64,000 nt of DNA from Candidatus Omnitrophota bacterium (GCA_028865345.1 JAGWKL010000002.1:665-64664); one strand, 5' to 3'. Shown: positions 2,545 through 45,480, counted from the first letter of the stretch. Program-made: numbers and translations. Notes: generated by a model not told the origin, from the letters alone.

Positions 2545-2904
2545 TTAACTGTTTAACTGTGCCAGGACTATCTTTTCAAGCTCTTCGAGAATGAAAGGCT
2601 TATGAATATACCCAAGAACGCCCAAAGCGTTGGCTTCTTTTATAGTTTCCTCATCCTCAACACCGGAAACCATGACGACTTTGACATTTAAATTGGCCTG
2701 GCGGAGCTGGCGCAAAACCTCAATACCTGTGATCTCTTCCATCCTGACATCAAGCAACACCAGATCGGGCTTCTCTTGTGAAATAATCTCCAAAGCCTGA
2801 CGGCCTCCGGATGCCACAAAAACATCGATTTTGCGTTTTTTAAAAAAATTCCGCGCAAATTCCCGGATGTCGGATTCATCATCAACGATCAATAATTTTG
2901 CCAT
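2545..2904 (-). CDS. Single-domain response regulator (REC only, CheY-like)
   Basis: LIVDDE start, phospho-acceptor context DLVLLDVRM, conserved K in YIHKPF. At 119 aa it has no output domain. Confidence 0.9.
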   Translation of the reverse strand: MAKLLIVDDESDIREFARNFFKKRKIDVFVASGGRQALEIISQEKPDLVLLDVRMEEITGIEVLRQLRQANLNVKVVMVSGVEDEETIKEANALGVLGYIHKPFILEELEKIVLAQLNS

Positions 2905-2926
2905 AATATAAGTTTATCCTAAAACC

Positions 2927-5086: not shown

Positions 5087-5492
5087 AGTAAATATGATTA
5101 GTAATAACCTTTTTGATCCCTTCAGGGAGCCGAAGAATTGACCCCTTATTATTCACAAAAATAAGTGTTTCGCCTCCAATACTAACAACTTCACCTGATT
5201 GTTTATTAAGATAAATAAACATCATTTCGAAACTGGATTTCTTTATATTACGGTTTTGTACTCTTAGTAAAATACGATCAAACGCATGAATCTGTTTTTT
5301 ATATTCATTCCAGGCATGTTTTGTGACCAAAGTTATATTATTAAATATTTCTTGATAATTTTCTACAGTAGTAAAATAGAGCTCTCTGCATATCCCCTGC
5401 CACTCGAAATATCGAGAAAAATAGACAGTCCCGTACATATTAATATCTTTTAAAGTAACAATAAATTCATACTCAAATGCGTCCTGATTCAT
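5079..5492 (-). CDS. Hotdog-fold (4HBT/YbgC-like) acyl thioesterase
   Basis: At 137 aa the size and the N-terminal pattern (VTLKDINMYGTVYFSRYFEW) are typical of 4HBT thioesterases. It overlaps the ACP gene by 4 nt and the HK gene by 8 nt. Confidence 0.65.
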   Translation of the reverse strand: MNQDAFEYEFIVTLKDINMYGTVYFSRYFEWQGICRELYFTTVENYQEIFNNITLVTKHAWNEYKKQIHAFDRILLRVQNRNIKKSSFEMMFIYLNKQSGEVVSIGGETLIFVNNKGSILRLPEGIKKVITNHIYFE

Positions 5493-5719
5493 AGATTCTT
5501 TGAATTAAGATAATTAATTACATCTTTAACTGTTTTTAATCTTCCAATTTCTTCTTCGCCTATTTTTATATTAAATTTATCTTCAATATTTAATACTAAT
5601 TCAACAATATCCAATGAATCTGCTCCTAAATCTTCAAATTTTGAGCAGTCCTTTAAATCTTCCCTTTTAACTCCTAGAGTGTCAGCTATTATAGTCTTTA
5701 CTATATCTATATTAGTCAT
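5489..5719 (-). CDS. Acyl carrier protein (stand-alone)
   Basis: 76 aa with the phosphopantetheine attachment motif GADSLDIVELV. Confidence 0.85.
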   Translation of the reverse strand: MTNIDIVKTIIADTLGVKREDLKDCSKFEDLGADSLDIVELVLNIEDKFNIKIGEEEIGRLKTVKDVINYLNSKNL

Positions 5720-5739
5720 ACCCCTCTAAAATAATATTT

Positions 5740-7014
5740 TCAGAACTTATACGTCAAACTCACCAACCCGATATTTATAAACTCACTATATTTCCCATCC
5801 ACCGTACCGGCGCTGCCGGCCGTCGACTTGGCAACTGAGTTGATAATGTTCCGTGTATCATAAAAAAGGATTGAATAGGCCACATCAAGTGTCAGGCGTT
5901 TAGTGATATCATAACCAAAACCTGTGGTATAACCGTTGGAATTGCTGTCCGGTATCCTCGGGTTAAAGGTGGCATCTGGGATAACCATTTCATGATGGTA
6001 ATAACCTAACCTTACACGAAAACGATCGTTGACATTATATTGGGTACCGATGGATTCAGACCATGCGGAATGCCAATCTGCGGGGGTGGGAGCAGCGAAA
6101 CCTAAAGTATTAAGGGTTGCACTGCCGTTGATGTTGATCGTCTGGTATTTCGTGCTGGACCAATCCACCCATGCCACATCAAGGTTAACCGTCCATTTCT
6201 TTGTAGGTTTGAAGCTATATCCTGCCACCACACTTTGAGGTAAAACCGACTTCTCGCTAACATTAGACACATAGGATGAAAAACCATAAGCAGTGGGATT
6301 AGCCCCGTTAATGCTCATTTTCCCCCGGTAATTGTGATTGATACGGCTGCGGTAGATCAAACCGATTTGATTTTTGTCATTGATTTTATACAGGGTCGCT
6401 ATACGGTATCCCCAAGCATCATCACCACCTTTAAGCTCGGCAATACCGATTGATCCGCCGTAACCATTAAGCGCAAAACTTTCATCCGCCTTTGATTCAT
6501 CGTTGTCCACGCTTGCGGCTATGGACCATTGCGGGGTCACTTGATACGAAAACGCCAGGGAATTATCAATGTCTGTAATGCTGGCCTGGGTTGTTGCATA
6601 CTCCAAAGGACTGTTAGGCCCCCAATTAGTGGCAGTGCCCCAATAAGAACCTGAACCAAAACCAATGCTTAATTTATTATTGACAGGCAAAACAGCGTAA
6701 AAATTGGGAATATTGAATTCATTGTTTTGCATGTGCACAGTATTTCCGTTTGGCTGTACCATATGGCCTCTGGGCGCAATAAGAGCATCTCCTACGGAAA
6801 TTTCCGGCCTGGTCATTTGATTCATACCGGCTGGGTTGTAGTACATGGCCGCAGGCGTATCCGCTTCACCGACAAAAGCCGAACCCATACCCATTGCACC
6901 AGCGTCGGGAACCTCTATATTATAGGCCCCGGAACCTGTAGCAAACGCACTCTGTCCCCAGGAAGTCATCAAAAACGCACAAAAAACGATGATGAATATA
7001 CGGAATAATGACAT
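5740..7014 (-). CDS. FadL/OmpP1/TodX-family outer-membrane hydrophobic-compound channel
   Basis: Signal peptide ending in SAFA. N-terminal hatch-like segment GAMGMGSAFVGEADTPAAMYYNPAGM. Alternating beta-strand pattern and a C-terminal YKF. Confidence 0.75.
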   Translation of the reverse strand: MSLFRIFIIVFCAFLMTSWGQSAFATGSGAYNIEVPDAGAMGMGSAFVGEADTPAAMYYNPAGMNQMTRPEISVGDALIAPRGHMVQPNGNTVHMQNNEFNIPNFYAVLPVNNKLSIGFGSGSYWGTATNWGPNSPLEYATTQASITDIDNSLAFSYQVTPQWSIAASVDNDESKADESFALNGYGGSIGIAELKGGDDAWGYRIATLYKINDKNQIGLIYRSRINHNYRGKMSINGANPTAYGFSSYVSNVSEKSVLPQSVVAGYSFKPTKKWTVNLDVAWVDWSSTKYQTININGSATLNTLGFAAPTPADWHSAWSESIGTQYNVNDRFRVRLGYYHHEMVIPDATFNPRIPDSNSNGYTTGFGYDITKRLTLDVAYSILFYDTRNIINSVAKSTAGSAGTVDGKYSEFINIGLVSLTYKF

Positions 7015-7153
7015 TTTATCCCTCCATTATTAAAGGGTTTACAATACCCGCATTTTGCGGAAACAACATAATATGGATGAACACATTGAAATTATACTTC
7101 GTCGAAGGCTCGACGGGAAGGGAAAACAGAAATATTTTTGATTAAAGCTCAAA

Positions 7154-7522
7154 TTATAGAATGGCCTCAAAAGCATTCTTCAGATGTTGAATTTGAGCCA
7201 ATCCTGTTTTGTCGCGGATGATGGAAACCACATCAAATCGTGAAGGAATTTCCAAAGACCCGTATTTGTATTTCAGATAAAGCGCGGCCAATTGGGAAAG
7301 CTTGCGGATTTTCCAGGAAGTCACGGCCTCATAAGGCTGGCCTTGATCCAGGCTTTGGCGGGTCTTGACTTCGATAAAACAAATGGTTTTACCATCTTTG
7401 GCGATTAAATCGATTTCGCCCAATTTGCTGCGGAAGTTTTCCTCCAATATGCGGTAGCCTTGGTCTAGCAAATATTGCCGGGCCAGGGACTCACCATAGA
7501 CTCCCAAGGTTTTATTGGACAT
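7154..7522 (-). CDS. yraN: YraN-family (UPF0102) endonuclease-like protein
   Basis: 122 aa. GESLARQYLLDQGYRILEENFRSKLGEIDLIAKDG...FIEVKTR matches the UPF0102 pattern. Confidence 0.85.
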   Translation of the reverse strand: MSNKTLGVYGESLARQYLLDQGYRILEENFRSKLGEIDLIAKDGKTICFIEVKTRQSLDQGQPYEAVTSWKIRKLSQLAALYLKYKYGSLEIPSRFDVVSIIRDKTGLAQIQHLKNAFEAIL

Positions 7523-19660: not shown

Positions 19661-21082
19661 TTACCACGAAAGGGTTGGACAATACAAGCCCTTTATTTCC
19701 CTTTGCCACCAGGCGCCGGTGGCTTTCCTGGCCTTAAAACCGGTAAAATGATACTCCCAAAAAGTGGCCTGAATGTAGCGTGGCGGATGACCGGCAAAAG
19801 GGTCCTTCGCAAACAAGCGCAGTACCGACGGATCGCCTTTTAAGAGACAGCGCATCAGATTGATCAACCAGGGGTTCTGGCGCCAATTGCTTAAAGAGGC
19901 AAACCACATTTGCCAATCCAGCCGGGGCTGATAAGGCACGGCCCAACCGGGAGCCCTGTAAATATTCCCCGGTTTATAAGGAAATTCGTACGGCTTCCAA
20001 TGGCTGCCGTCATTGCTTCCTTCCAGAATTATTTCATTACGCCGGGTCGTCATCACCGCAAAAAGACCGTAGTTATTGATGCTGCGCAAAGGGCTAAGCG
20101 CGTCCACGAGTTTCTCCACAGGCAGCGGCAAAGCCATACCCGCGAATGAATTCGCAATAAGCCCAAGGCTTACGGTCAAGATGAGCGCGGCCACAAGACA
20201 GGTGACAACCTTATGGATAGCCCCTCCCTCTATGACCTTGGCCCCAGCCAGGGGAATAAACTTAAGATGCCCGTCGTCCAAAAGGAGCAGGCAAAGGCCT
20301 ATGGCCAAAAGATTGAAAAAACAATAATTACCCGTCAGCATGATCAAGGATTGCAACACGACGATCCCCCAGAAGGCGATCAACCTTGCCCGTCGCCCGA
20401 AAAAAATAAAAAACGGCACAACGAGCTCAATGATAAAAACAAAAAGGCAGGACAATTTTTCAAACCACAACGGCAACTGGGCCATATACCAACTGATCAC
20501 GTTAGGCAAAGGCTGTGTCCAATAATGGTAGGTCAAGGCGGTGAGATCGGCCCAGTGGGGGTCTCCGCTGGCCAGCTTGACGACTCCGGACTCGAACATC
20601 AGGCGGAAAAGCAGCCAGCGCAAAAGCCAAATAACAATGATGGAAGGACGCACAGAGGGCTTTAATTGGATGCCCAATGGCCGCGGAAAAAGAAAGATCA
20701 AAAGAAAGCCGGCTTCCAGCAGCAAATTGTCCCACTGGAAACCTAAAAAGTCCTGGCCTGCGACCGTCAGGGACAAATAAAAAAGCCAGAGTAAAAAAGC
20801 TGACAACCCCGGCATGATCCCGAACAAAAGCAGGATGGAAAGCGCCGCCCCGCCCCAGCACAAAAACAACAAAAACCAGTCGCTATGATTCAGCCAGCAA
20901 AGGGTGGGGACAAGCCAAAAACGGCCGCCTCCTGCCTCTCCCTGCACAGAACGCAGAAAATCCCCGATGGGCAAAACGCCTTGGTGGCCGATAAGGCCCA
21001 ATACCTGCACTCCTAATGACCAAAAGGCCGCCAGATAAATCAAAGCCATCCATCGGCTGAAAACCCAGGCAGTAAGGACCAT
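19661..21082 (-). CDS. Lipase-maturation-factor (LMF1)-like polytopic membrane protein
   Basis: About 10 TM helices. The C-terminal soluble part (LLKGDPSVLRLFAKDPFAGHPPRYIQATFWEYHFT) resembles the conserved LMF C-terminus, from memory. Confidence 0.6.
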   Translation of the reverse strand: MVLTAWVFSRWMALIYLAAFWSLGVQVLGLIGHQGVLPIGDFLRSVQGEAGGGRFWLVPTLCWLNHSDWFLLFLCWGGAALSILLLFGIMPGLSAFLLWLFYLSLTVAGQDFLGFQWDNLLLEAGFLLIFLFPRPLGIQLKPSVRPSIIVIWLLRWLLFRLMFESGVVKLASGDPHWADLTALTYHYWTQPLPNVISWYMAQLPLWFEKLSCLFVFIIELVVPFFIFFGRRARLIAFWGIVVLQSLIMLTGNYCFFNLLAIGLCLLLLDDGHLKFIPLAGAKVIEGGAIHKVVTCLVAALILTVSLGLIANSFAGMALPLPVEKLVDALSPLRSINNYGLFAVMTTRRNEIILEGSNDGSHWKPYEFPYKPGNIYRAPGWAVPYQPRLDWQMWFASLSNWRQNPWLINLMRCLLKGDPSVLRLFAKDPFAGHPPRYIQATFWEYHFTGFKARKATGAWWQREIKGLYCPTLSW

Positions 21083-30055: not shown

Positions 30056-30487
30056 TTAGAACTTAAAACTGGCACCCTCTGGCGTGAAACTGGGACCGTC
30101 ATCGACATCGGAGTCTCCATTGCCGTCCGGGTTCAGGGAGGCAAGGATATTTTCTCTATTGATCCATTTCTTCATTTGCTCCCGGCTCAAAACCAGGCTT
30201 AATCTTTTATTTTCTTCTTCTTTCAACTTTTGTATGGCGCTTTTGACAGCCCCATGCTCCAGCAAACCGCCTCCCGCCACCTGCTGAAGGACCGCTTCGC
30301 GCTTGACCAGATAGTCTTGGACAATGGGGTACACGGCTTGAACCTGGGCCTTTGTCAATTGCAACACAGTCTTCATTTTGTTGACATTATAATCGACAGC
30401 AGACTGCATTTCTTTGGCTTGGGCCGATGCCCAGGGGCCCAATACCAAAAAAAAGGCCAAAACACCTGCCCCATATTTGCGGACCAT
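30056..30487 (-). CDS. Periplasmic LTXXQ-motif (Spy/CpxP-like) protein
   Basis: Signal peptide ending in ASAQA. LTKAQ and LSREQ motifs sit in a helical, charged 143-aa protein. Confidence 0.55.
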   Translation of the reverse strand: MVRKYGAGVLAFFLVLGPWASAQAKEMQSAVDYNVNKMKTVLQLTKAQVQAVYPIVQDYLVKREAVLQQVAGGGLLEHGAVKSAIQKLKEEENKRLSLVLSREQMKKWINRENILASLNPDGNGDSDVDDGPSFTPEGASFKF

Positions 30488-30603: not shown

Positions 30604-33600
30604 TTAGCGATCTCCCTGCGTCATAGAGCCCCCCAAAAATGCCCCTAAATCCTTCATCGGCTGAATGTCGATGATCACCGGCACGAAACCTGGGGCATTT
30701 TGCAGACGGGTGAGCATGGCAGGATCCATATGGAAATTAATGCCTTGGCCCGCATGTTGTGTCTGCAAATCCATGTGGGCGGCGGTCAGATCAATACCTC
30801 CGGTGGGAGTCATGGATTGATCGGCGTGCGCCATGGCAATTTTATCCATAAGTTGCCGGGCCATGAGTATCGCTCTGTGTTGATCAATAAAATTTGGGCT
30901 TGTCACGATAGAAACCGCTTTAGCCTTAACGGCCATTTGAGCTATTTTGTCCAGCATAGTTTCGACTTCAGCATTGGAATAGCCGTTAAATACGTCGAGA
31001 TCGACATCCACCAGATCATAAGGCTTTTCCTGCGGATCAATGGATGAGCCTGGTTGAGCGGCGTATCGCACCGGCCCTTCGTCGATCATTTGCACGGCAC
31101 GCAAAGTGTCCAGATTATAAAGCCAATGCCAATAAGGCAGGCCGCTTTTATCTGAAGCTATGAAACCTTCCTTAACAAAGGGAGCTATAAAACCTTCTAT
31201 ACCAAGGACATTTTGGGCATAACGATCAGCCTCGATGAGCTTGTCCGTGTTTTCCCCAAGAAACCCGCCGGAGCTATTATAACGGCGGGTAATCCGTGCA
31301 TCAGGGTGTGCATCAATATGCAATAAACTTAACCCCTTTTGAAGCATCCCTTGCCTCAACATCAACCACCAAAAGGTAAAGACATTGCTGTGATCGTCGG
31401 AAATAAAAACCATGGGGCCTTTTTTAAGATCGATCAAAACTTTTTTCGTTAGTCCGTAGATGGTCCCGTCCTTCGCCGTTGCGCCCTTGATCAGTTGTCC
31501 TCCCATCTTATCAGACCAGCCATCAACAATGTCCCAATCCGTGATGCCGGAGGCATTTATAGAAGAAAAACCCGCCTCTGCGAAACTCTTGAGAGACACC
31601 TTCATGGCACTGTCCTTTTTAATTTTAGGCTTTGGGGCCAATAAAACCAGGGCCTTTCCGTTGGAGAAATCACGGTTTGCGTTTTGGACGATGGTGTAAT
31701 TAAACCGGCCTGGGGCGGAATTTAATTCAGCAAGAGTGTCTACAACTTGAGCCGCTTTCCCCAAAGAAGTATATTGAACAAAGGAAGTGTCCATCATCAA
31801 TGCAGAAATAAACCCCCGGTTAAAATTTTCTAAATCAAAATGCTCAGCAGCCTCTTCTTTTGTCAAAAGGTCCCCCACATCAATCACAACCATCCTGTCG
31901 GTCCCCCCGGCCGATCCAACATCTACCAAAAAACCATTAGGCTTCATGACAAAACCCCGGGCCAACAATTTCTTATATAACTTAAAATAGCCGTTTAACA
32001 GAGTGTCTATTTTTTGGTGTAAAACATCAGGATCATCCTGATAAATTCTTCTTAAACTCCTTATCCGATCCAGCAACGGGACAACTTCTTGCTGTACGAC
32101 GGCATGGGGGACCCTGATGATGTGTCCGCCCACATTGACGTCCAGGTCCTTAAAAACGAGATACCCGGCCGCCAAGGGGCCCAAACGCTCCTGATATTCA
32201 TCATATTTTGACCAAACCTGAGGATCAGTGACACCCTTGACGACAATATCACGCCCTTCGACATTCCCTTTATAGACCACTGATTCCACTCCTCCGGCAA
32301 ATTTAATCAACGGGTGGTCTCTCAATTGGGAACGCAACACATTCTTTAACGCCTCCAGGCCGGTATCCTGCGCTTTTGAAGCCATGGCATTATCTTTGAT
32401 CTCCAGTTCGATGCCATGGCCCTTATCTTGGGGAACTAAATATTCATACTCCTCTGCAAAGCCGCCGAACCGCGTATCATCAGCGACTATCGCCGTGATC
32501 TTTCCGCCGCTCTTTTTGATGCCGAAAAAGAAATTGTGACTGCCGGCGAGGCCCACATTGACCTCATGGGTTTGTATATGGCGCGCTTGGAAGGCCTCCT
32601 TGACATTGGGCAATATTTGCGAGTAGCTGTCGATCAAATTCACCATTTCGGGCCTGGGCCCCAATCTTCCCAGGAAAAGCCCGACCTGGTTGTCCAGATC
32701 GTCGAGGTCTTCATTAAAGAAATGGGCGATAGACATTTTGCCCTCGCGGTCAATCACGACCGCCACCACGCAATCCCCCATTTCGACGGCATCTGTCCAA
32801 AACACGCCGTTAGTGGCGCCGATGACCGCCGTACGCTCGGATATTTCATGGCCGACAAATTCCTTACCCGTCGACAAATTCATCAAATTGATGTCCGGCT
32901 CAGGCGGGACATGAGATTTCAGATAGGAGTACTCGATCCCCAACGCGCCGGCAAAGGCCAGCGAAACGGCTATGACTTTAAGGGATTTGGGGACAGTCAT
33001 GGCCGCATTGGGCATTTGGTCCGTATACCGTATGACTTGATTTGCCTTCATGGCCAAATCAAACTTCACCCCTCCGGAAAAATATTTTCTCGGGACCATT
33101 TGCCGTGTCAGGGGGTCCCGTTTTTCCTCGATATAATTATAGACGCCTTTTTTAAACGCCTGCAGGTAACGCCGGTAAATTGCCTCCACCCGTAAGGGGC
33201 CGTTGAAGCCCACACCTGCCACTTTATTTTTACCGGCATAAGCTTGTGCCAGGATACTCTTTTTTATTTTCATCTTATACCAGGTAGCCAGGATCAAAGA
33301 ATTATAAACCTGACGCAAGACGGCAAAATTTTCATCTTCATTGACCTCCCTGGTCAATTCAGGGATGACGATTTCACGGATGACCTGACTCCCCAATTGA
33401 TTGGTGCCTCGGGCAACGGCCGCAGCACCCGACCCTTCATGCTTTTCAAGTGACAAATAATCCTGGTCCAGCATGACCTTTAGCCTGCTGCTTATCACAT
33501 AGGCCGTTTGTGCCCCGGTATTTTCATAGACCACGGCTTTTTGGGGAAGTATCCAGACTTTGTTAAACGTGTTCACTGCAATATCGGTCGTCCCGTATTT

Positions 33601-34101
33601 TTTCCGGGCCTCTTCATAAACACGTTTCCAAAACTTTTTTCCGGTTTGTCCCTCGGGATAAATCAGGCTGGCGGTGACCTGTTTAAGCAGGTAATCTTCA
33701 GCCAATAAATCACGGCCCATCCGTGTTGAACCAAAAGAAGGCGGGATGATCCTGTCTTTTTCATAAGGGCTTAAATTGACCCACAGGTCCTCTTCCGGGA
33801 CGGTCAATGATGCCAGGAAGTATTGGACCAGCCTGGCAGCTTCCCGTTTCAGCCCCTCCCTTCCTTCAGGATACTGGTCCCCCTGATCCAAAATAAAGTC
33901 GAATCTCAGAGGATCATCAGGATAAACTTTTATTCCTTTGAGGATGGGAGGCTCAAGAGGAGGACTTAAATGGACCATGACGCCGGGGGCAGGCAGACGC
34001 CATTCATCCGCCCGGGCCATGGGGATCGGCCCCATGACAAGCGTTACAAAAAAAGACAAAATGGTCAATACGCATATAGGGGACTTTGGGGTTTGGTTCA
34101 T
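30604..34101 (-). CDS. Large secreted or anchored modular protein of unknown function (1165-1180 aa)
   Basis: Signal peptide (ICVLTILSFFVTLVMGPIPMARA). An unrecognised ~340-aa N-terminal domain. A kinase-like segment (GGVESVVYKG...IVVKG...MKPNGFLVD...VVIDVGD). A UPF0489-like segment (FISDDHSNVF...LLHIDAHPDA...DVDLDVF). A distinctive C-terminal tail. A TTG at 34146 is an alternative start. Confidence 0.8.
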   Translation of the reverse strand: MNQTPKSPICVLTILSFFVTLVMGPIPMARADEWRLPAPGVMVHLSPPLEPPILKGIKVYPDDPLRFDFILDQGDQYPEGREGLKREAARLVQYFLASLTVPEEDLWVNLSPYEKDRIIPPSFGSTRMGRDLLAEDYLLKQVTASLIYPEGQTGKKFWKRVYEEARKKYGTTDIAVNTFNKVWILPQKAVVYENTGAQTAYVISSRLKVMLDQDYLSLEKHEGSGAAAVARGTNQLGSQVIREIVIPELTREVNEDENFAVLRQVYNSLILATWYKMKIKKSILAQAYAGKNKVAGVGFNGPLRVEAIYRRYLQAFKKGVYNYIEEKRDPLTRQMVPRKYFSGGVKFDLAMKANQVIRYTDQMPNAAMTVPKSLKVIAVSLAFAGALGIEYSYLKSHVPPEPDINLMNLSTGKEFVGHEISERTAVIGATNGVFWTDAVEMGDCVVAVVIDREGKMSIAHFFNEDLDDLDNQVGLFLGRLGPRPEMVNLIDSYSQILPNVKEAFQARHIQTHEVNVGLAGSHNFFFGIKKSGGKITAIVADDTRFGGFAEEYEYLVPQDKGHGIELEIKDNAMASKAQDTGLEALKNVLRSQLRDHPLIKFAGGVESVVYKGNVEGRDIVVKGVTDPQVWSKYDEYQERLGPLAAGYLVFKDLDVNVGGHIIRVPHAVVQQEVVPLLDRIRSLRRIYQDDPDVLHQKIDTLLNGYFKLYKKLLARGFVMKPNGFLVDVGSAGGTDRMVVIDVGDLLTKEEAAEHFDLENFNRGFISALMMDTSFVQYTSLGKAAQVVDTLAELNSAPGRFNYTIVQNANRDFSNGKALVLLAPKPKIKKDSAMKVSLKSFAEAGFSSINASGITDWDIVDGWSDKMGGQLIKGATAKDGTIYGLTKKVLIDLKKGPMVFISDDHSNVFTFWWLMLRQGMLQKGLSLLHIDAHPDARITRRYNSSGGFLGENTDKLIEADRYAQNVLGIEGFIAPFVKEGFIASDKSGLPYWHWLYNLDTLRAVQMIDEGPVRYAAQPGSSIDPQEKPYDLVDVDLDVFNGYSNAEVETMLDKIAQMAVKAKAVSIVTSPNFIDQHRAILMARQLMDKIAMAHADQSMTPTGGIDLTAAHMDLQTQHAGQGINFHMDPAMLTRLQNAPGFVPVIIDIQPMKDLGAFLGGSMTQGDR

Positions 34102-34175
34102 CTCTTTTAAAGTATGTAATATATTTAGATAAAAAACAAGGGTCAAAGAACAATAAAAATGGTAATATAACAGCC

Positions 34176-35915: not shown

Positions 35916-38321
35916 CTATATGCGCGCTTTGGCTGAAATACGCATTTCATAAAAGGAGCGGATCAAAAAGAACAGGGCAACGCCAAAAAAGACAACGGCA
36001 AGAAAAATGTCAAGCCCCCGGCCCAAACCAATGGCAATTTCAATGGCCAGCAACCCAAACAAGGTCGTAAATTTGATGATCGGATTGATGGCCACCGATG
36101 ATGTGTCTTTAAAAGGATCCCCCACCGTGTCCCCGACCACCGTTGCCGCATGTAATTCTGTGCCTTTTTCCTGATACGTCACTTCTACCAACTTTTTAGC
36201 ATTGTCCCACGCCCCGCCGGCGTTGGCCATGAAAATGGCTTGAAAAAGGCCGAAAACGGCAATGGAGATCAGATAGCCTATGAAGAAATACGGCTCCAGA
36301 CAGGCGAAAGCAAGGGTCATAAAAAGCACGGCCACGAAAATATTGATCATCCCCTTTTGGGCGAACATCGTACAAATTTCTACGACCCTTGTACTGTCCT
36401 GTTTGGAGGATCTGTCTGTTCCTTCCAACTTGATATGTTCCTTGATATACTGCACAGTATGATAAGCCCCTGTGGTCACCGCCTGAATGGAGGCGCCGGA
36501 AAACCAGAAGATCATGCCCCCGCCGCTTAAAAGCCCGAGCAACAAAGGCGGATAAAGCACCGACATGTTCTCCATATGCACTGTGAGGCCGCGGGTTAAT
36601 ATCATAATGATAGAAAAAATCATGGTGGTGGCGCCAACCACGGCTGTCCCGATCAACACCGGCTTTGAAGTGGCCTTAAAGGTGTTCCCCGCCCCGTCAT
36701 TGGCTTCCAGATGATGTTTGGCAAGCTCGAAATTCGGCGTAAAACCGCTGGTCTTTGCGATTTCTTCCTTAATATTCGGAATGGCCTCGACAAGAGAGAG
36801 TTCATAAATCGACTGCGCGTTGTCGGAAACAGGCCCATAAGAATCAACGGCAATGGTGACTGCCCCCATCCCTAAAAATCCGAACGCCACCAGGCCAAAG
36901 GCAAACACCGCGGGTGCTATCATGATGGCATCCAACCCCATTAAACTGACAAAATAGCCTAAAGCCATCAGGACCACGATCACCAGCCCCATCCAATACG
37001 CGCTGTAATTCCCCGCCACCAGCCCGGAAAGGATATTCAGCGAGGTGCCACCCTTTTTGGAGCATTCGTAAATGTTCTTCACAAAATCCGAATTCATGGA
37101 TGTAAAGACCTTGATCCCCTCCGGAATGACGGCACCGGCCAAGGTGCCGCAGGTGATGATGGTGGCCAGCTTCCACCAAAACGTACCGTCCCCCAAATTC
37201 GGGATAAGGACATAGGAGGCCACATAGGTCAGGATGATCGAAAAAATCGAGGTGATCCATACCAGGGAGGTCAAGGGATCTTCAAAGTTCATTTCTTTAG
37301 CATTGGCATAGCGCCTTTTGGCAAAAAAATGGTTGATTTCATAAGAAAAACCGCTGGCGATCAGCATGATCAAACGCATGGAAAAGATCCAAACCAGGAG
37401 CTCTGCCTGGACCTGCGGATTTTTGACGGCCAAGAGAATAAAAGCGATGAGCGCCACTCCGGTCACCCCGTAGGTCTCGAAACCGTCCGCCGTGGGCCCA
37501 ACCGAGTCCCCCGCATTGTCCCCCACGCAATCGGCGATGACCCCCGGATTGCGCGCGTCGTCCTCCTTGATATTAAAAACGATCTTCATGAGATCAGACC
37601 CGATGTCCGCAATTTTTGTAAAAATGCCGCCTGCGATCCTCAGAACGGAGGCGCCCAACGATTCACCGATGGCAAAACCGATAAAACATGGGCCGGCATA
37701 GTTGGGATTAATAAAAAGAAGAATGCATAACATGACAAAAAGTTCAATGCTGATAAGGAGCATGCCGATGCTCATGCCCGCCTGCAAAGGAATGGAATAG
37801 ACCGGAAATGGTTTGCCTTCCAGGCTCGCAAAGGCGCAACGCGAATTCGCCAGGGTGTTGATCCTCATGCCAAACCAGGCGACACTATAGCTTCCGGCGA
37901 TACCGATGAGACTGCAGACTAAAATAAGAGCGACCCTGCCGGCGTCAAAATGGCGCAGCCAGCCGAAATAGGCCACCATGACACCCCCGATCAGGACCTC
38001 CAAAACCAGCAGGAACTTCCCCTGGGCAATAAGATATGCTTTACAGGTCGAATAAATGAGCTCGGAGATCTCTTTCATGCTTTGATGCACCGGCATCTTT
38101 TTCAATTGCCCGAACTGATAGATACCAAAAAATGCCCCGAAAGCGCAGACAATAAGACCTAACATCAATGCGGTGTGGCCGTTTAAGTGAAAAATAAGAG
38201 GAACCGAGGATAAATCAGGCACTATCAGGTCTGATTCGCCCGCCCAAGCTCCCGGAAGACCCAGAAAAAATGCCATGAACGTTAAAAGTCCAAGTCTATA
38301 AAACTTCTGACGACGGCTCAT
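35916..38321 (-). CDS. hppA: Membrane-bound ion-translocating pyrophosphatase, copy 1 (K+-independent-type signature)
   Basis: KEDDARNPGVIADCVGDNAGDSVGPTAD, GDTVGDPFKDTS, and GNTFKATSKP, which has Lys at the A/K discriminator position. About 16 TM helices, 801 aa. Confidence 0.9.
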   Translation of the reverse strand: MSRRQKFYRLGLLTFMAFFLGLPGAWAGESDLIVPDLSSVPLIFHLNGHTALMLGLIVCAFGAFFGIYQFGQLKKMPVHQSMKEISELIYSTCKAYLIAQGKFLLVLEVLIGGVMVAYFGWLRHFDAGRVALILVCSLIGIAGSYSVAWFGMRINTLANSRCAFASLEGKPFPVYSIPLQAGMSIGMLLISIELFVMLCILLFINPNYAGPCFIGFAIGESLGASVLRIAGGIFTKIADIGSDLMKIVFNIKEDDARNPGVIADCVGDNAGDSVGPTADGFETYGVTGVALIAFILLAVKNPQVQAELLVWIFSMRLIMLIASGFSYEINHFFAKRRYANAKEMNFEDPLTSLVWITSIFSIILTYVASYVLIPNLGDGTFWWKLATIITCGTLAGAVIPEGIKVFTSMNSDFVKNIYECSKKGGTSLNILSGLVAGNYSAYWMGLVIVVLMALGYFVSLMGLDAIMIAPAVFAFGLVAFGFLGMGAVTIAVDSYGPVSDNAQSIYELSLVEAIPNIKEEIAKTSGFTPNFELAKHHLEANDGAGNTFKATSKPVLIGTAVVGATTMIFSIIMILTRGLTVHMENMSVLYPPLLLGLLSGGGMIFWFSGASIQAVTTGAYHTVQYIKEHIKLEGTDRSSKQDSTRVVEICTMFAQKGMINIFVAVLFMTLAFACLEPYFFIGYLISIAVFGLFQAIFMANAGGAWDNAKKLVEVTYQEKGTELHAATVVGDTVGDPFKDTSSVAINPIIKFTTLFGLLAIEIAIGLGRGLDIFLAVVFFGVALFFLIRSFYEMRISAKARI

Positions 38322-38435: not shown

Positions 38436-40193
38436 TTATTGTTGAATAACACGCAGGAATTCTTTGGCGGCTTCCGCAGGGCCGTTGCGCTCCCAGCCGG
38501 AAAGCCCCAGGCGGGTGCGGAGCAATCCCACAAAAACCCCGGCCTTAAAGAAAGCGTCAAAATATTTCTTCGCCAATTGCTCATGAAGTTCCTTGTACTG
38601 GACAGGACCGAAAACATTGGCGAAATAGGAGTGGACTATCCCGCTTGAAGTGGTGGTGCCTTTGCTCATCACTGTCCCATCCCGGAAGATCTTGATGGCA
38701 GATTCGGACGTTTTCAACTTCTCAATGATGGGATGATCATCATCAATATCTTCATAATTGTTGGCATACAGGATAAAATCAACCTGGTGGCCTTTGATCA
38801 GATTATTAAAGGTGGTGACCGGCAGAATGATGCGCGCGTTGACCTGGTTGGCGTTCATGATGATGGCGCGGTCGATCTGCCCAAGGGCATAACCGGGCTG
38901 CAGGTCGTCCAGGCGCAGGAAAGCGCCGATCTCCGTCCCTCGGCCCATGACTTTTCCCTGCGCTGACAAAGCCAAGGATCCCATGTCGTCCGCAATAACG
39001 ATAATATCCTGGATGTAAAGGTCCCCCAAGGTGCGGAATGCCTCCAACGTTTCCGATTTTCCGGCCCCTGTGTCCCCCATCAATAAAACGGTAACGTCTT
39101 TATCGCCCTTAAGGATGATGCGCACCATGGCCCCGTGAAAAGGCAGGTGCCCCATTTTCATGATCTTGATGTTATGGAGCGTCAGGATCATTTTCTTCAA
39201 ATAACCGAAATAACCGAATTCGTCGCGGCCGGGGACCGCGCCGACCAAAAGACCGTTTCTTTCATCATCGAAGAAAACCGTCGGCATCTTGCTAAGACCG
39301 TCCAATACCGCGCCCGGAACCCCAAAAGCAAAAACCGCATCAGGGACGCGTTCCAAATCCTTGTCATCTGCCATTTCGAAAAGATTGCACAGCGAAAGAC
39401 CGAGTTCGAAAAACATTTTATGGAAATAAACCAGGACAATGAGCGGCCCCACCTTGGCCGGATAACACAGCCATTCATCCTTGTCGAAATCAAACAAGTC
39501 CATGGGGTTCTGCGCCACGCGTTCGAATTTTCCCGTACGCTTGTTCATCGGCGTATCCAGTATCAAAGGCGGATACAGAAGCACCTGCCGGATGATGGGC
39601 ACCCCCCGCAATTTTTCATAAACACCGGAAGGCAAATTCAATTTCCGCTGGGAAGTGATCACCCCGACTTCGGCGCCGGCAATGACCTGCCGGTAAATAC
39701 GCGGGTGTTGTTTGGTCAAATTCTCGGCAATATCGCGGTAGGTCCCCCGGATGAGGTGGCTCAACGGTTCGACCACATTATTGAAGGTGCGGTAAGGCCT
39801 TTGATCCAGGTCACGGCCTGCCGAATCACAGACGACAAAACGCTCCAGGGAGCGCCAATAGTTGTAAAGATATTCAATAAAATCATTGAGCAGGAACTTG
39901 TCTTGCAAAAGCACCTCTGATCCTGGAACTGCGCCAGGCAGAAGGTCTGCGGAATTCTTGCTCAAAAACTTGAAACTCCTGATAATGAGATCGATCTCAT
40001 CCTTATCTGCAGGCTTGTCGGCGTGGAATATATTTAAAAGAATGGAATTCTTGTGCTTGAGCTCCGCCATGCAGTCGCCCAGCACCCTCTTGAACAATTC
40101 GCTGTTAAGGACATCCTCCGTGGTGAAACAGACCTTATCATTAAAATGGATGATGACCTTGTTGCCGTGAATATCGAAATGGGAATTATTCAT
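38436..40193 (-). CDS. Uncharacterised protein with an HprK/PEPCK-type P-loop
   Basis: HGAMVRI...VTVLLMGDTGAGKSETLEAF...VIADDMG (P-loop at about 39051-39077). The remaining ~350 N-terminal aa are unrecognised. No TM segment or signal peptide. Confidence 0.6.
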   Translation of the reverse strand: MNNSHFDIHGNKVIIHFNDKVCFTTEDVLNSELFKRVLGDCMAELKHKNSILLNIFHADKPADKDEIDLIIRSFKFLSKNSADLLPGAVPGSEVLLQDKFLLNDFIEYLYNYWRSLERFVVCDSAGRDLDQRPYRTFNNVVEPLSHLIRGTYRDIAENLTKQHPRIYRQVIAGAEVGVITSQRKLNLPSGVYEKLRGVPIIRQVLLYPPLILDTPMNKRTGKFERVAQNPMDLFDFDKDEWLCYPAKVGPLIVLVYFHKMFFELGLSLCNLFEMADDKDLERVPDAVFAFGVPGAVLDGLSKMPTVFFDDERNGLLVGAVPGRDEFGYFGYLKKMILTLHNIKIMKMGHLPFHGAMVRIILKGDKDVTVLLMGDTGAGKSETLEAFRTLGDLYIQDIIVIADDMGSLALSAQGKVMGRGTEIGAFLRLDDLQPGYALGQIDRAIIMNANQVNARIILPVTTFNNLIKGHQVDFILYANNYEDIDDDHPIIEKLKTSESAIKIFRDGTVMSKGTTTSSGIVHSYFANVFGPVQYKELHEQLAKKYFDAFFKAGVFVGLLRTRLGLSGWERNGPAEAAKEFLRVIQQ

Positions 40194-41576: not shown

Positions 41577-43973
41577 TTAAGCTGAAATACGCATCTCGTA
41601 AAAAGACCGGACCAAAAAGAACACGGCAACTGTAAAAAAAACAGCCGCCAAAAATATATCCAGCCCCCGGCTTAACCCGATGGCGATCTCAATGGCCAGT
41701 AAGCCGAACAATGTCGTGAATTTGATGATCGGATTGATGGCCACAGATGAAGTGTCTTTAAACGGGTCCCCCACCGTGTCTCCCACCACCGTCGCCGCAT
41801 GCAATTCAGTGCCTCTCTCTTGGTATGTGACTTCCACGAGCTTCTTGGCATTGTCCCATGCTCCGCCGGCATTGGCCATGAAAATGGCCTGAAAGAACCC
41901 GAAGGCGGCAATGGAGATCAAATACCCTATAAAAAAATACGGCTCCAGGCAGGCAAAGGCGAGAGTGGTAAAAAGGACGGTCACGAAAATATTGATCATG
42001 CCTTTTTGGGCGAATACCGTGCAAATTTCCACCACCTTTTTGCTGTCCTTGGTGGAAGCCCTGCCTTCCTGGTCCAGCTTTATGTTTTCTTTGATGTATT
42101 GCACGGTGTGGTAGGCGCCGGTGGTCACCGCCTGGATGGAAGCCCCGGAAAACCAATAGATCATGCCGCCCCCGCTCAAGAGCCCAAGCAGGAATGGAGG
42201 ATAAAGTACGGATAAATTTTCCATATGGACCGTAAGGCCGCGGGTCAATATCATGATGATGGAAAAGATCATGGTGGTGGCCCCCACCACGGCCGTTCCG
42301 ATCAAAACAGGCTTGGCTGTGGCTTTAAAAGTGTTGCCTGCGCCGTCATTGGATTCCAGATGGTGCTTGGCAAGCTCAAAGTCAGGCGTAAAGCCATGGT
42401 CCCTGATGATCTCCTCTTTGATATGAGGAAGGGTCTCGATGAGAGAAAGCTCATAAATGGATTGTGCATTGTCGGAAACCGGCCCATAGGAATCAACGGC
42501 AATGGTGACCGGCCCCATGCCCAAAAATCCAAACGCCACCAGGCCAAAAGCAAACACCGCCGGTGCGATCATAATGGCATTCAGGCCAAGAGTACTGATA
42601 AAAGAAGCAACGGCCATCAGGACCACAATGACCACCCCCATCCAGTGGGCGCTGTAATTCCCCGCCACCAAGCCTGATAGGATATTAAGAGAAGCCCCTC
42701 CTTTTTTGGAGCTTTGATAAATGTTCTTCACAAAATCTGAATTCAAGGAAGTAAACACCTTGGTCCCCTCCGGTATGACCGCTCCTGCCATGGTGCCGCA
42801 GCTGATGATGGCGGCGAGTTTCCACCAGTAGGTGCCATCACCCAAAGATCGTATGAGGGCAAAAGAAGCCAGGAAAACCAGGGCGATCGATACGATGGAG
42901 GTGATCCACACCAGGGATGTCAACGGCGCTTCGAAATCCATGGTGTGAGTTTTTAAATAGCGCCTTTTGGCAAAAAAATTATTGATCTCGTAGGAAAGGC
43001 CGCTGGCGATGATCATGATGGTGCCGATGAAAAATATCCACACCAACAGCCTGGCCTGAACCAGGGGATTTTTAACAGCCAAAAGAATAAAGGAAATAAG
43101 CGCCACCCCGGTCACGCCGTAGGTCTCAAAAGCATCCGCCGTAGGACCCACCGAGTCGCCGGCATTGTCTCCCACGCAATCGGCGACCACCCCGGGATTA
43201 CGCGCGTCGTCTTCCTTGATGTTAAAAGCGATCTTCATGAGATCGGCGCCGATGTCCGCAATTTTGGTAAAGATCCCTCCGGCGACCCTCAGCACAGACG
43301 CGCCCAACGATTCACCAATGGCAAAACCGATAAAGCAAGGGCCGGAATAATCGGGGTTGATAAAAAGGATGATGCTTAACATGACGAAAAGTTCCGTGCT
43401 TATCAACAACATGCCGATGCTCATACCCGCCTGCAGGGGAATGGAATAAACGGGAAAGGGTTTGCCTGCAAGGCTTGCGAAAGCGCACCGGGCATTGGCC
43501 TTGCCGTTGATCCTCATGCCGAACCATGCCACGGCATAGCTTCCGGCGATGCCGATCAGGCTGCAGACTAAAATAAGAACGACTTTGTCGGCGTCAAAAT
43601 GCCGCAGCCATCCGAAATAGGCCACCATGACAGCACCGATCAAAACTTCCAGGGCAAGCAAAAACTTTCCCTGGGCGATGAGATAGGTTTTGCAGGTCGT
43701 ATAAATGAGCCGGGAGATATCTTCCATGCTTTTATGCACGGGCATTTTCTTCAAACGTGCGTACTGGTACATTCCGAAAAAGATGCCGAAAATGCATACC
43801 AAAAGCCCCAAGATGAGGGTCCTGCGGCCGTCCAAACCAAAAATGCCGGGTACAGCGGACAAATCCGGAACCTTCAAATCCGCCTCACCGGCCCATGCCG
43901 GCGAAACACCTGAAAAGAATGCCGCAAAAATTACAAACCAGGATTTACAGACCCCCGTCCACCGATTCTTCAT
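41577..43973 (-). CDS. hppA: Membrane-bound ion-translocating pyrophosphatase, copy 2 (paralogue of 35916-38321)
   Basis: It has the same motifs as copy 1 and is co-linear along its whole length. A good SD (AAGGGAG) precedes ATG 43973. Confidence 0.9.
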   Translation of the reverse strand: MKNRWTGVCKSWFVIFAAFFSGVSPAWAGEADLKVPDLSAVPGIFGLDGRRTLILGLLVCIFGIFFGMYQYARLKKMPVHKSMEDISRLIYTTCKTYLIAQGKFLLALEVLIGAVMVAYFGWLRHFDADKVVLILVCSLIGIAGSYAVAWFGMRINGKANARCAFASLAGKPFPVYSIPLQAGMSIGMLLISTELFVMLSIILFINPDYSGPCFIGFAIGESLGASVLRVAGGIFTKIADIGADLMKIAFNIKEDDARNPGVVADCVGDNAGDSVGPTADAFETYGVTGVALISFILLAVKNPLVQARLLVWIFFIGTIMIIASGLSYEINNFFAKRRYLKTHTMDFEAPLTSLVWITSIVSIALVFLASFALIRSLGDGTYWWKLAAIISCGTMAGAVIPEGTKVFTSLNSDFVKNIYQSSKKGGASLNILSGLVAGNYSAHWMGVVIVVLMAVASFISTLGLNAIMIAPAVFAFGLVAFGFLGMGPVTIAVDSYGPVSDNAQSIYELSLIETLPHIKEEIIRDHGFTPDFELAKHHLESNDGAGNTFKATAKPVLIGTAVVGATTMIFSIIMILTRGLTVHMENLSVLYPPFLLGLLSGGGMIYWFSGASIQAVTTGAYHTVQYIKENIKLDQEGRASTKDSKKVVEICTVFAQKGMINIFVTVLFTTLAFACLEPYFFIGYLISIAAFGFFQAIFMANAGGAWDNAKKLVEVTYQERGTELHAATVVGDTVGDPFKDTSSVAINPIIKFTTLFGLLAIEIAIGLSRGLDIFLAAVFFTVAVFFLVRSFYEMRISA

Positions 43974-44157: not shown

Positions 44158-45480
44158 ATGAAAACGTTCAAACCTTTTCCCTTACCTCTCCATGTGTCGG
44201 GCGTTTTCCTTTTCTCATTGATCTACTGGATTTTTCTGTCTCTGAAAAGTATTTCTGCCGACCTCATTGGTTATAAAACCTTGGGGTCTATCATTTACCA
44301 CCAAGGGTTGGTCGGATACGCAGCCACCGGGCTGCAACGTGAACCTCTCTATCCCCTGTTATGTTCCTTGGCCATGTATGTAGAACACTTAAGCGGTGTT
44401 AATTTCACTCATATCATGGCAGCTTTAAGCATCATCATGTTGATGATCTCTCAAATTCTAATATATGCCATTTTAAGAAAACTGAACATCCGCCCTTTGA
44501 TCTGTTCTTTAGTGCTGCTTTATTGGGCCGTATCGCCATGCATCACAGAATCCGCCTTTCACATATTATTATTTTGCGAAATCGTTACCTATCCCCTCAT
44601 TCTTGCCGTAATTATTTTCTCTTACCTCGGATGGGAATCTGTAAAAGAAAACGACAAAGGGGAGGCCTGCGCCTATGGAGCCCTTACAGGCCTTTTATTT
44701 GCATTGCTGACCCTCGTGAAAGCCGCATTTGAATGTATTTGCCCTGCCTATCTTATATTCTTTTTCCTGGGAGCCTTGCATAAAAATAAATTTTCCGCTT
44801 CTCTGATCTGTTTTCTGGCTGCTGCAGGCTTATTATTTTATTCTCCTATCGTTGGCTACAAATCTTTAAATAAAATGTATAATGGGCATTTTGCCGTTAC
44901 TAACAGGGGCGACTGGGCCTTTTATGGAGTTGCGGCCCACCGTGTAAGACCTCTCAAGAACTACCTCATCAATCTTGATTTCGTAATAGGCAACTGCGAG
45001 GCCTTTTTTCAATCATCAGCATGCAACTCTGTAAGTTCCGGTATTTCGGATAGTTTAGGGACACAAAAGGCGGCAGAATTGGCCGCCAAGCACATCCCGC
45101 CGCAAGCCGTCTCAAATACCCTTCTGCAGTTGTCCATCCAGAAAATCCTGTCCCATCCGTTTCAATATATTTTGTTATCAGCAACCGAAGGACTCAAAGC
45201 ATTATTTTGGGAAAACAACGCCGGTATCATTCCACTGCGGTTCATTATGCCTATCATTACATTCTTTGCGATCATTTATTGCTGTTTCAACTTTGCCCAA
45301 GCCCCCATTTTGATAAAAAACATTATGGCTATGATTTTCTTATTTGTTTTCTTTTATTCATTTTTTGACACTTTGGGCCGCTATTTTCTTCCGATTTCTT
45401 CCCTATACCTTATCAGCATCGGTTACTGCATGAATTCATTATGCAACTTTCTATCCCCTTCTAAAAACACTATAGTTTAA
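44158..45480 (+). CDS. Polytopic membrane protein, possibly a GT39/GT83-like (PMT/ArnT-type) glycosyltransferase
   Basis: About 11-12 TM helices in 440 aa, with a first-loop segment LQREPLYPLL reminiscent of the PMT_2 family. The GC content is markedly low. Confidence 0.4.
   Translation: MKTFKPFPLPLHVSGVFLFSLIYWIFLSLKSISADLIGYKTLGSIIYHQGLVGYAATGLQREPLYPLLCSLAMYVEHLSGVNFTHIMAALSIIMLMISQILIYAILRKLNIRPLICSLVLLYWAVSPCITESAFHILLFCEIVTYPLILAVIIFSYLGWESVKENDKGEACAYGALTGLLFALLTLVKAAFECICPAYLIFFFLGALHKNKFSASLICFLAAAGLLFYSPIVGYKSLNKMYNGHFAVTNRGDWAFYGVAAHRVRPLKNYLINLDFVIGNCEAFFQSSACNSVSSGISDSLGTQKAAELAAKHIPPQAVSNTLLQLSIQKILSHPFQYILLSATEGLKALFWENNAGIIPLRFIMPIITFFAIIYCCFNFAQAPILIKNIMAMIFLFVFFYSFFDTLGRYFLPISSLYLISIGYCMNSLCNFLSPSKNTIV

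Follow-up and report, generated by a model that had tools for sequence, protein, structure and literature searches.

MARTX toxins, found in Vibrio and its relatives, have conserved N- and C-terminal regions that flank shuffled, cytoplasm-acting effectors, which are released by inter-domain processing; the proteins are poor in Cys. Giant multi-enzyme proteins are also on record from Omnitrophota, a phylum proposed to consist of host-dependent or predatory nanobacteria (PMC10066038), and have been suggested to be cleaved, at points reported as unknown (West-Roberts et al. 2023, 10.1101/2023.11.21.568195). The gene considered here lies on the minus strand of a 64,000-nt stretch of DNA from a Candidatus Omnitrophota bacterium (GCA_028865345.1 JAGWKL010000002.1:665-64664; the whole stretch is called the window below). 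Its open reading frame (ORF, 30604..34146, minus strand) comprises 1180 amino acids (aa) when counted from a TTG codon, and all residue numbers given here follow that count. The product, referred to as the query, appears to be an exported protein in which a constant frame, consisting of a signal peptide, an N-terminal domain (N-domain) and a short C-terminal tail, encloses a variable cargo, here the three modules A, B and C.

Among 5.8 billion protein clusters searched, with 8,000 candidates scored, at least 3,635 are significantly homologous to the query, a number to be read as a lower bound. With thousands of homologues, the reality of the gene is far beyond chance. All family matches that carry a source name are from Candidatus Omnitrophica or Omnitrophota. 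Almost all of them share just two parts of the query, residues ∼21–360 and 1116–1172, while their middles are unrelated, and the gene is therefore one member of a constant-frame, variable-cargo family. The first-pass annotation had proposed a search for relatives sharing the N-terminal domain and the tail, and these exist in the numbers just given; its picture of a one-off scaffold with meaningful neighbours is not supported, since both ends are common property and the neighbours (see below) do not recur. According to precomputed Pfam assignments, the cargo of other members includes response-regulator (REC), HATPase, GGDEF, GNAT, protein kinase and HAD domains and several methyltransferases, together with glycosyltransferase (GT1), phospholipase D, metallophosphoesterase, guanylate kinase, DnaJ, FHA, MutS-type ATPase and HEAT domains. 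Catalytic motifs of the cargo are intact in these sister proteins (GGDEF or GGEEF; HxDxKxxN with DFG or DWG; methyltransferase motif I).

When one genome of each GTDB species was scanned, 155 encoded relatives were obtained, from which 80 loci were kept; these counts are lower bounds, as the patterns used were a few exact peptides. All 80 loci come from metagenome-assembled genomes (MAGs), most of them labelled Omnitrophota and the rest bearing generic labels or, once, 'Elulimicrobium'. A genome has up to seven loci, and eight of the 80 loci contain two copies, on the same strand. N-domains of paralogues from the same genome are 63% identical, those from different genomes 54%, and for 33 of 53 copies the nearest relative is in another genome. 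On these figures a recent amplification within genomes is rejected; the paralogues are old, with orthologues in other genomes. The 'Elulimicrobium' case (L046, DYOU01000001.1) is an N-domain carrier labelled Candidatus Elulimicrobium sp., placed by NCBI in the Patescibacteria group; either the label is at fault or the domain also occurs beyond Omnitrophota. A phage origin is rejected, with no match among 50,697 phage records. Three IMG/VR contigs classed as viral (L082, L083 and L084, 23–51 kb) encode an N-domain 54% identical to that of the family member P0280 (see below); this could be Omnitrophota DNA that was classed wrongly, prophage regions or genuine carriage by phages.

The composition of the family proteins is peculiar in one respect, the near absence of Cys. 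It makes up 0.02% of the N-domain, 0.12% of the cargo and 0.01% of the tail, compared to 1.36% in their own signal regions, 1.05% in the non-family ORFs of the same 80 loci and 1.26% in the Pfam-supported ORFs of the window. Mature family proteins are about 9-fold depleted, and 45 of 117 cargo regions contain no Cys at all. The same is seen for a single module: standalone UPF0489 proteins have 0.92% Cys, while module C of the query, which belongs to that family, has none. The depletion therefore covers the mature polypeptide including its cargo and is no compositional effect. Avoidance of Cys is typical of proteins that cross the envelope unfolded or free of disulfides, such as RTX proteins and autotransporter passengers, and it is the strongest evidence that the cargo would be exported together with the frame. 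Since Cys has been purged from the cargo except for one invariant, probably catalytic residue in module A, the cargo is likely to have been under long selection in an exported context. Six proteins of 2,863–7,546 aa (P0122, P0123, P0125, P0130, P0205 and P0211) share modules with the query and are without N-domain, tail and DxAM motif (see below); their Cys content, 0–0.1%, is like that of the frame family, which points to a purging of Cys that is general among multi-enzyme proteins of the Omnitrophota type.

The frame begins with the signal peptide, and its position bears on the start of the gene. The 1180-aa reading frame reported in the first-pass annotation exists, but its start is likely to lie further downstream, at the ATG of residue 16 (MNQTPKS, at 34101), because 1165-aa database proteins begin there. 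MDE1920486.1 and three near-identical 1165-aa proteins from other MAGs match the ATG-started product, and are named 'UPF0489 family protein [Candidatus Omnitrophota bacterium]'. The coding sequence would then be 30604..34101 on the minus strand, with the stop codon at 30604–30606. The Sec-type signal peptide (residues 16–46; 34009..34101, minus strand) has a positive n-region (K21), an h-region ICVLTILSFFVTLVMG, with a hydrophobic core of 16 residues and a hydropathy peak of 2.19, and the c-region PIPMARA, with cleavage predicted between A46 and D47. An AxA-like site is found in the same register, upstream of a conserved LPxPG, in 202 of 211 family members, and a GPxP c-region is conserved along with it. 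The query, with MARA/DEWRLPAPG at residues 43–55, fits the family pattern of AxA followed by [DQ][DE][FY].LP.PG. A signal peptide had been claimed from the start, and the family alignment agrees, with its predicted end at MARA/DE. A further hydrophobic segment is absent in most members.

The N-domain (residues 47–366, DEWRLPAPG...PRKYFSGGVKFDLAM; 33049..34008, minus strand) is a basic region of 320 aa (pI 9.2, no Cys in the query) whose start region is LPAPGVMVHLSPP. It is 60–72% identical to the N-termini of the best 120 matches, and query residues 21–360 are covered at this level in 119 of them. In pairwise comparisons of 125 members that differ in cargo, it has a median identity of 78%. The domain ends with an invariant PRKYFSGG followed by x-D-x-A-M (KYFSGG is at 354–359 in the query). 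It has no match in Pfam, NCBIfam or PDB sequences, and searches of the protein with PADLOC and PHROGs also gave none, so that the domain is as unplaceable as had been noted earlier. A short linker, residues 367–383 (32998..33048, minus strand), ending in PNAAM, lies between two junction motifs and leads to the cargo.

At the other end of the protein, the tail (residues 1113–1180; 30607..30810, minus strand) has a core of 57 aa (1116–1172, GGIDLTAAHMDLQTQHAGQGINFHMDPAMLTRLQNAPGFVPVIIDIQPMKDLGAFLG), which is present at 60–70% identity, about 10 residues from the C-terminus, in 117 of the top 120 matches. The consensus is GGIDLTPANMNLQTQN.G..IKFHLDPAML.QLQNAPGFVPVIINIQP..L..FLG, and the query fits it with GGIDL...GFVPVI...FLG. 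The strong conservation bears out the earlier impression of a conserved tail, and there is no Pfam or NCBIfam match at E≤1. Variant tails pair with variant N-domains, and the distances of the two parts are correlated (Mantel r=0.73, 0 of 999 permutations), showing that the two halves of the frame are inherited as a unit. Both frame domains are absent from the family libraries, and are without a solved or confidently similar structure.

The frame can also occur alone. P0280, a complete gene present on five contigs, encodes 438 aa consisting of signal peptide, N-domain, a 15-residue linker and tail. On one contig (L081) it is located at 2704–4020, and 72 bp downstream (4093–7425) is a cargo-bearing paralogue of 1110 aa, with a divergent N-domain (50% identical to that of the query) and a variant tail, GGVDIRNV...GFTPVIMGITPV. 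The full-length AlphaFold2 model of the query is poor, with a predicted local distance difference test score (pLDDT) of 47 and only noise in a fold search; that of P0280, made from a 74-sequence alignment, has a pLDDT of 72.5 and a predicted template modelling score of 0.69. The N-domain within it reaches a pLDDT of 80–92 and consists of long helices and three beta-hairpins; a fold search with the P0280 model found no neighbour for it.

Relatives of the N-domain were found in six large Streptomyces replicons by tblastn against plasmid records, with 35% identity over 186 residues (E=6e-32). A comparison of the two domains by hhalign gave a probability of 99.9% (E=1e-30) over 279 of 309 columns. 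The four Streptomyces homologues examined (WP_121549542.1, WP_266737726.1, WP_331747086.1 and WP_251091514.1) begin with a signal peptide and an N-terminal region of ∼350 aa. The conserved domain comes next, with GG[IV]DF motifs on either side, and is followed by a low-complexity stalk and a C-terminal anchor. The ∼350-aa region is unrelated between three of the four, and two of the proteins are similar throughout. The anchor is LADTG, a transmembrane (TM) segment and RRRR in two of them, and a TM segment with basic residues in the other two; NCBIfam sortase-signal models support the LADTG anchors with scores just under threshold. No Pfam domain is matched in these homologues. From the homology and the architecture it follows that the N-domain represents an uncharacterised extracytoplasmic superfamily with variable partners in two phyla. 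Homology of the Omnitrophota tail to the Streptomyces GGIDFT... segment was considered and rejected, as only the motif is shared and the tail hidden Markov model (HMM) scores below 2 bits. The N-terminal 'head' regions of two Streptomyces homologues (genes at L085 4819–7140 and L086 4696–7146) contain motifs that may be reminiscent of toxins. The head of the S. fungicidicus protein has a deaminase-like HSE...CTRC, that of the NBC_00376 protein a GSAFE...D...EFK resembling PD-(D/E)xK nucleases; Pfam matches nothing in these regions, and the resemblance is tentative.

The cargo of the family is set off by a short motif, [D/N]xAM. In 121 proteins, D.AM occurs 349 times against 15.6 expected from shuffled sequences, about 117 of these occurrences being the DPAM of the tail itself. 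AM is the sole x-M dipeptide enriched in the variable middles (517 vs 171, 3-fold), and two residues upstream of the enriched AM there is D in 56% and N in 12% of cases (68% together). Twelve members have Pfam domains that were assigned with confidence; of their 35 motifs, 34 are outside these domains, where 8 would be expected inside, and many stand 5–20 residues upstream of the next Pfam domain. In the query, FDLAM (362–366; 33049..33063) directly follows the invariant KYFSGG that ends the N-domain, PNAAM (379–383) ends the linker before module A, KDNAM (584–588; 32383..32397) marks the junction of modules A and B, KDSAM (844–848; 31603..31617) that of B and C, and a variant, ADQSM (1108–1112; 30811..30825), that of module C and the tail, all on the minus strand. 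These positions, KDNAM among them, are also where the blocks that resemble different relatives come to an end. The cargo is flanked alike on both sides, by GG.D.AM before and GGIDLTPANM after. In 89 family ORFs from the related loci, Shine-Dalgarno-like sequences precede junction Mets no more often than other Mets (frequencies of 0.202 and 0.203), and the codons for the D and A positions of the motif vary freely; because of this, the motif is taken to be selected in the protein rather than in DNA or RNA, and internal translation starts and RNA-level signals are rejected as explanations. In P0125, one of the long proteins without the frame (3,786 aa), modules are separated by another recurring linker, RSE[M/S/V]R (for example GRRSEMRDLG, TRSESREDAG and GRSESRKLEI), and different lineages may use different junction motifs.

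As a whole, the middle of the query is rare. A word-indexed search found it in 4 proteins, and an exhaustive HMMER search of 1.84 billion representatives gave 144 matches, mostly standalone UPF0489 proteins. Modules A, B and C are found separately and at different positions in relatives, that is, they have been shuffled.

Module A (residues 384–588; 32383..32997, minus strand) is a discrete unit, in accordance with the earlier recognition of an unknown module following a hydrophobic segment. It starts with a hydrophobic leader, M383-TVPKSLKVIAVSLAFAGALG, ends with KDNAM, and is found elsewhere in P0003, P0088, P0108, P0124, P0134, P0145 and P0146, at other positions. The invariant residues of its core in the alignment are T449, C459-V460, I465-D466 and H475, and C459 is the sole Cys in the 1134 mature residues. 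No Pfam family matches module A in the query or in 7 relatives; it is a putative Cys/His hydrolase. A CheD-like deamidase, suggested by the T...C...H pattern, was rejected for lack of Pfam support in the 7 relatives. The hydrophobic segment that had been pointed out after the N-terminal domain (VIAVSLAFAGALGI) is present at 391–404, but it is weak (Kyte-Doolittle 1.59), is not a feature of the family and is no shared anchor. It travels with module A, even to near the C-terminus of a protein (P0088, 1505–1661). Relatives keep a signal-like leader right after the junction Met, M-KAQSRRKFFKTAAALGG in P0134 and MTRRGFLKTT...AFA in P0145, the latter with a weak match to Pfam TAT_signal. Judged by these relatives, in which it resembles a Tat- or Sec-like signal, segment 391–404 is best regarded as the leader of module A.

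Module B (residues 589–848; 31603..32382, minus strand), which ends with KDSAM, has no assigned family and is rare, with about 12 clusters among the 1.84 billion representatives. Its invariant residues are the Lys of IVK (636), GFL (738–740) and VIDVGD (754–759). The proposal that it is a protein-kinase-like module has failed on three counts: the best kinase in a profile search of PDB has E=0.52, which is not significant, Pfam recognises no family in any of 11 relatives, and hhalign against real kinase domains gives a probability of 0.8%. The short alignment that hhalign does produce has a 3-residue gap at the catalytic HxD (GFVM---KPNGFLVD), the DVGD motif being present.

Module C (residues 849–1112; 30811..31602, minus strand), ending with ADQSM, is a complete UPF0489 (arginase/peptide-arginase-like) domain, as had been anticipated, and UPF0489 is the sole family recognised in a Pfam scan of the 1180-aa protein. 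The match to PF12640 (residues 913–996, window 31159–31410; E=6.7e-10, 40 bits vs a cutoff of 27) spans only profile positions 1–74 of 167. However, 80 standalone UPF0489 proteins project onto query residues ∼832 to ∼1102; the standalone homologues therefore end 6–10 residues before the next junction and begin no more than about 16 residues from the junction Met. The module contains the motifs DDH (917–919), HIDAHPD (943–949) and DVDLD (1047–1051), which, as in the arginase family, would be metal-binding. It aligns with the peptide arginase OspR (PDB 8brp, E=0.003) via DDH and HxDxHxD, while the score against NCBIfam NF052474 (peptide arginase, FlmR/OhkR) is 24.7 bits, far below the cutoff of 350. 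In the best explanation, module C is an arginase-like UPF0489 metallohydrolase. Because of the leaders of module A and the full length of module C, the modules give the impression of entire proteins that the frame has taken up, one of them with its own leader.

Taken together, these features suggest that the frame is an exported carrier, by which captured enzymes are displayed at the cell envelope or handed over to the cell of a host or prey, a view to which we would give an even chance. The protein would be exported through Sec, and the near absence of Cys would exclude disulfides and allow membranes to be crossed in an unfolded state. The N-domain, probably with the tail, would then anchor or assemble the protein at the cell envelope, and the cargo would be displayed outside or brought into the cell of a host or prey, with the junction motifs as candidate sites of processing that releases the modules. 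The use of the cargo at or inside another cell appears most likely because many cargo types need ATP, GTP, S-adenosylmethionine (SAM), acetyl-CoA or cytoplasmic partners, none of which is to be expected outside a cytoplasm; in the proposed mechanism, relatives with such needs in sister proteins could function nowhere else. Such a use also fits the proposed host-dependent or predatory lifestyle (PMC10066038). Actual delivery into the cytoplasm of a target cell, taken by itself, is possible but doubtful. Equally tentative is a broader version, a phylum-wide device that would export essentially any captured Cys-purged cytoplasmic enzyme beyond the envelope of the producing cell and into the host or prey cytoplasm, with [D/N]xAM and the Gly-Gly boundaries as processing sites.

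Several points weigh against a carrier. The tail is modelled with moderate confidence in P0280 (pLDDT 50–67). The co-divergence of N-domain and tail could be explained by common descent alone, the depletion of Cys also fits a purely extracellular or periplasmic life, and [D/N]xAM may serve as a structural linker or be left over from cassette insertion. No dedicated secretion, protease or chaperone gene, and no partner gene, is linked in cis in the 80 related loci or the window. Finally, judged by the Streptomyces homologues, anchoring at the surface is to be expected rather than injection.

The last point belongs to the main rival of the carrier, a surface or periplasmic scaffold without delivery, in which N-domain and tail meet like the ends of flagellin and anchor or polymerise as a coat on which the cargo is displayed, to act in the periplasm or outside the cell. 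Conserved ends around a variable middle, the existence of the frame-only P0280, the signal peptide and the scarcity of Cys would all be expected of it, as would the extreme conservation of the N-domain, which is of the kind shown by assembly interfaces, and the sortase-anchored Streptomyces proteins with their domain beside the wall anchor. Polymerisation is unsupported, however, and the sister cargo (REC, HATPase, GGDEF, protein kinase, methyltransferase, DnaJ, MutS-like ATPase) depends on cofactors or partners and has kept its catalytic motifs, so that a pure display scaffold is rather unlikely.

The cytoplasmic type of the cargo would be accounted for more directly if the N-terminal helix remained uncleaved and N-domain, cargo and tail faced the cytoplasm, forming an enzyme hub anchored in the inner membrane. 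A preprint places nearly half of the long proteins of Omnitrophota in a 'TM-only, cytoplasmic-domain' class (10.64898/2026.06.07.730766), which is in line with this. But the AxA cleavage motif and its GPxP c-region are conserved, the n-region is positive, as in Sec signal peptides that export the downstream sequence, and the homologous domain of Streptomyces is extracytoplasmic. The 9-fold depletion of Cys, confined to the mature part, would have no explanation in cytoplasmic proteins, and the hub is considered improbable.

Still less probable is that the frame gene is simply a hotspot for in-frame captured ORFs, an evolutionary by-product with selection on the frame only and little function in the cargo. 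That the modules resemble entire proteins taken up together with their leaders, that they are shuffled, and that the same pattern (GG.D.AM and GGIDLTPANM) stands on both sides of the cargo would agree with such a history, but the catalytic motifs of the cargo are intact, its Cys has been purged except for the invariant one in module A, and the old paralogues have orthologues in other genomes.

A transmembrane sensor, with a periplasmic N-domain, a second span at 391–404 and modules A–C as cytoplasmic outputs, could draw on the moderate hydrophobicity of that segment and on the signalling domains in sister proteins. The hydropathy of 1.59 is, however, below a usual threshold for TM segments, in most members the N-domain is not followed by any hydrophobic stretch, and segment 391–404 moves with module A, whose relatives have a Tat-type leader there (RRxFLK...AxA). 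The cargo is purged of Cys like the N-domain, and a median identity of 78% would be atypical for a sensor domain across thousands of paralogues, making this reading very hard to sustain.

The neighbouring genes had suggested a function specific to this locus. A 143-aa ORF downstream of the gene (30056–30487), which had been taken as an LTXXQ (Spy/CpxP-like) periplasmic protein, does contain a signal peptide and one LTKAQ, as well as LSREQ and an acidic, Asp/Gly-rich C-terminus, but matches no Pfam family at E≤0.001, hence not the LTXXQ (Spy/CpxP) model. On the other side, as described earlier, genes for a histidine kinase (HK, HisKA+HATPase) and a REC protein are divergently oriented, with ∼74 bp between the start codons. 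A relative of the 143-aa ORF is found beside none of the 80 family loci, HK/REC matches near them are sporadic and weak, and none of the neighbour families is seen at more than 6 of the 80. A unique secreted multi-enzyme that acts with the Spy/CpxP-like neighbour under control of the divergent HK/REC pair, as adjacency, the 74-bp gap and the LTKAQ motif with its signal peptide might suggest, is thus already largely refuted as a general explanation and has next to no probability for a protein that is one of thousands on the same frame.

The window is otherwise ordinary chromosome, with genes for ribonucleotide reductase, ExoVII, GatAB, TsaD, SecDF, Mfd, an S41 peptidase and FabF among others, and no second copy of the gene was found in it. 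Two full-length paralogues of an H+-translocating pyrophosphatase (35916–38321 and 41577–43973; 801 and 798 aa) are encoded on the same strand within 8 kb, with a 585-aa ORF (38436–40193) and an adenylate-kinase-like ORF between them. The 585-aa ORF and another of 440 aa (44158–45480) match no Pfam family at E≤1e-5. A 473-aa ORF (19661–21082) matches lipase maturation factor LMF1 (PF06762, E=4e-59; PF25179, E=6e-50), a family best known from eukaryotes. The region 4001–6000 has a GC content of 0.33, compared to ∼0.5 elsewhere, and sits between a 7TM-GAF histidine kinase (2927–5086) and a FadL-type outer-membrane transporter (5740–7014).

The significance of the family lies first in annotation. 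Its members are now named after whichever cargo domain is recognised, which hides a single family. We know of no molecular means by which Omnitrophota, which are ubiquitous, uncultured and suspected of parasitism or predation, act on a host, and the carrier family is a concrete candidate for the host/prey interface of the phylum. The field gains two new domains, a minimal member of 438 aa (P0280), a short junction motif and a catalogue of cargo, and through the link to Streptomyces the N-domain reaches into a second phylum, which favours an extracytoplasmic role. The junction motif is a candidate site of cleavage, and if the frame is indeed a delivery device, the same logic, scaled up, would explain the giant multi-enzyme proteins of the phylum. 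The literature searched by motif and topic contains no description of the frame, its motifs occur in no paper of the searchable corpus, and neither of the two papers on giant proteins (10.1101/2023.11.21.568195; 10.64898/2026.06.07.730766) mentions the constant frame or the junction motif. Nor did that literature describe a comparable combination of modules, as the first-pass annotation had supposed, and its more general idea of an exported modular protein is supported as far as the encoded features can indicate export.

In comparison with known systems, the giant proteins of Omnitrophota are from the same phylum and have the same types of cargo (methyltransferase, HATPase, GNAT, HAD, REC, glycosyltransferase, GGDEF, HEAT), but they are of at least 10,000 aa, and the proteins of several thousand aa examined here have no N-domain, tail or [D/N]xAM. 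The UPF0489 relatives of module C are standalone enzymes of ∼250 aa, while module C is embedded in a multi-module protein predicted to be exported. The Streptomyces surface proteins are truly homologous over the whole N-domain, which ends in both with Y-x-x-GG-V-D-[LF] and has GG[IV]D[FL] boundaries; they likewise have a signal peptide and join a constant domain to unrelated variable regions. They differ in that the variable region is N-terminal of the domain and the C-terminus is a stalk with a sortase or membrane anchor, and in having no Omnitrophota-type tail, no [D/N]xAM arrays and 5–7 Cys each. The query, unlike sortase-anchored proteins, has no C-terminal LPXTG or LAxTG, TM helix and basic tail.

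Other systems resemble the family in organization. MARTX toxins share with it the constant ends, the variable, shuffled modules and the Cys-poor polypeptide. In contrast to them, the carrier family is free of RTX or glycine-rich repeats (a single nonapeptide match among 121 proteins), the query has no cysteine protease domain (no match to Peptidase_C80 or any other such Pfam family), and a Sec signal peptide takes the place of type I secretion; a carrier protein has a tenth of the size, the junction motif [D/N]xAM is unrelated, and delivery and cleavage are here only candidates. The cargo proteins of the type IX secretion system (T9SS) and the autotransporters (type V) likewise start with a Sec signal, vary in their functional middle and close with a short conserved element that very many proteins of one phylum share, and autotransporter passengers are Cys-poor, as is the carrier family. 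The query, however, matches no T9SS C-terminal domain, autotransporter or YadA barrel model in Pfam or NCBIfam, its 57-aa tail has no terminal aromatic beta-signal, there is an additional 320-aa N-domain, and the phylum is not Bacteroidota. Flagellins with an enzymatic hypervariable region (flagellinolysin) have conserved ends that act together and a variable central insert, which is sometimes an enzyme, but there is no similarity of sequence or fold to flagellin, the carrier family has a Sec signal, and its polymerisation is only supposed. By analogy, then, the design logic of constant ends, variable cargo and an exported, Cys-poor chain is precedented in MARTX, T9SS cargo, autotransporters and enzymatic flagellins. 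As none of these comparisons placed the carrier family within any of those groups, it stands apart from them, and there is a substantial chance that it represents a new kind of delivery device.

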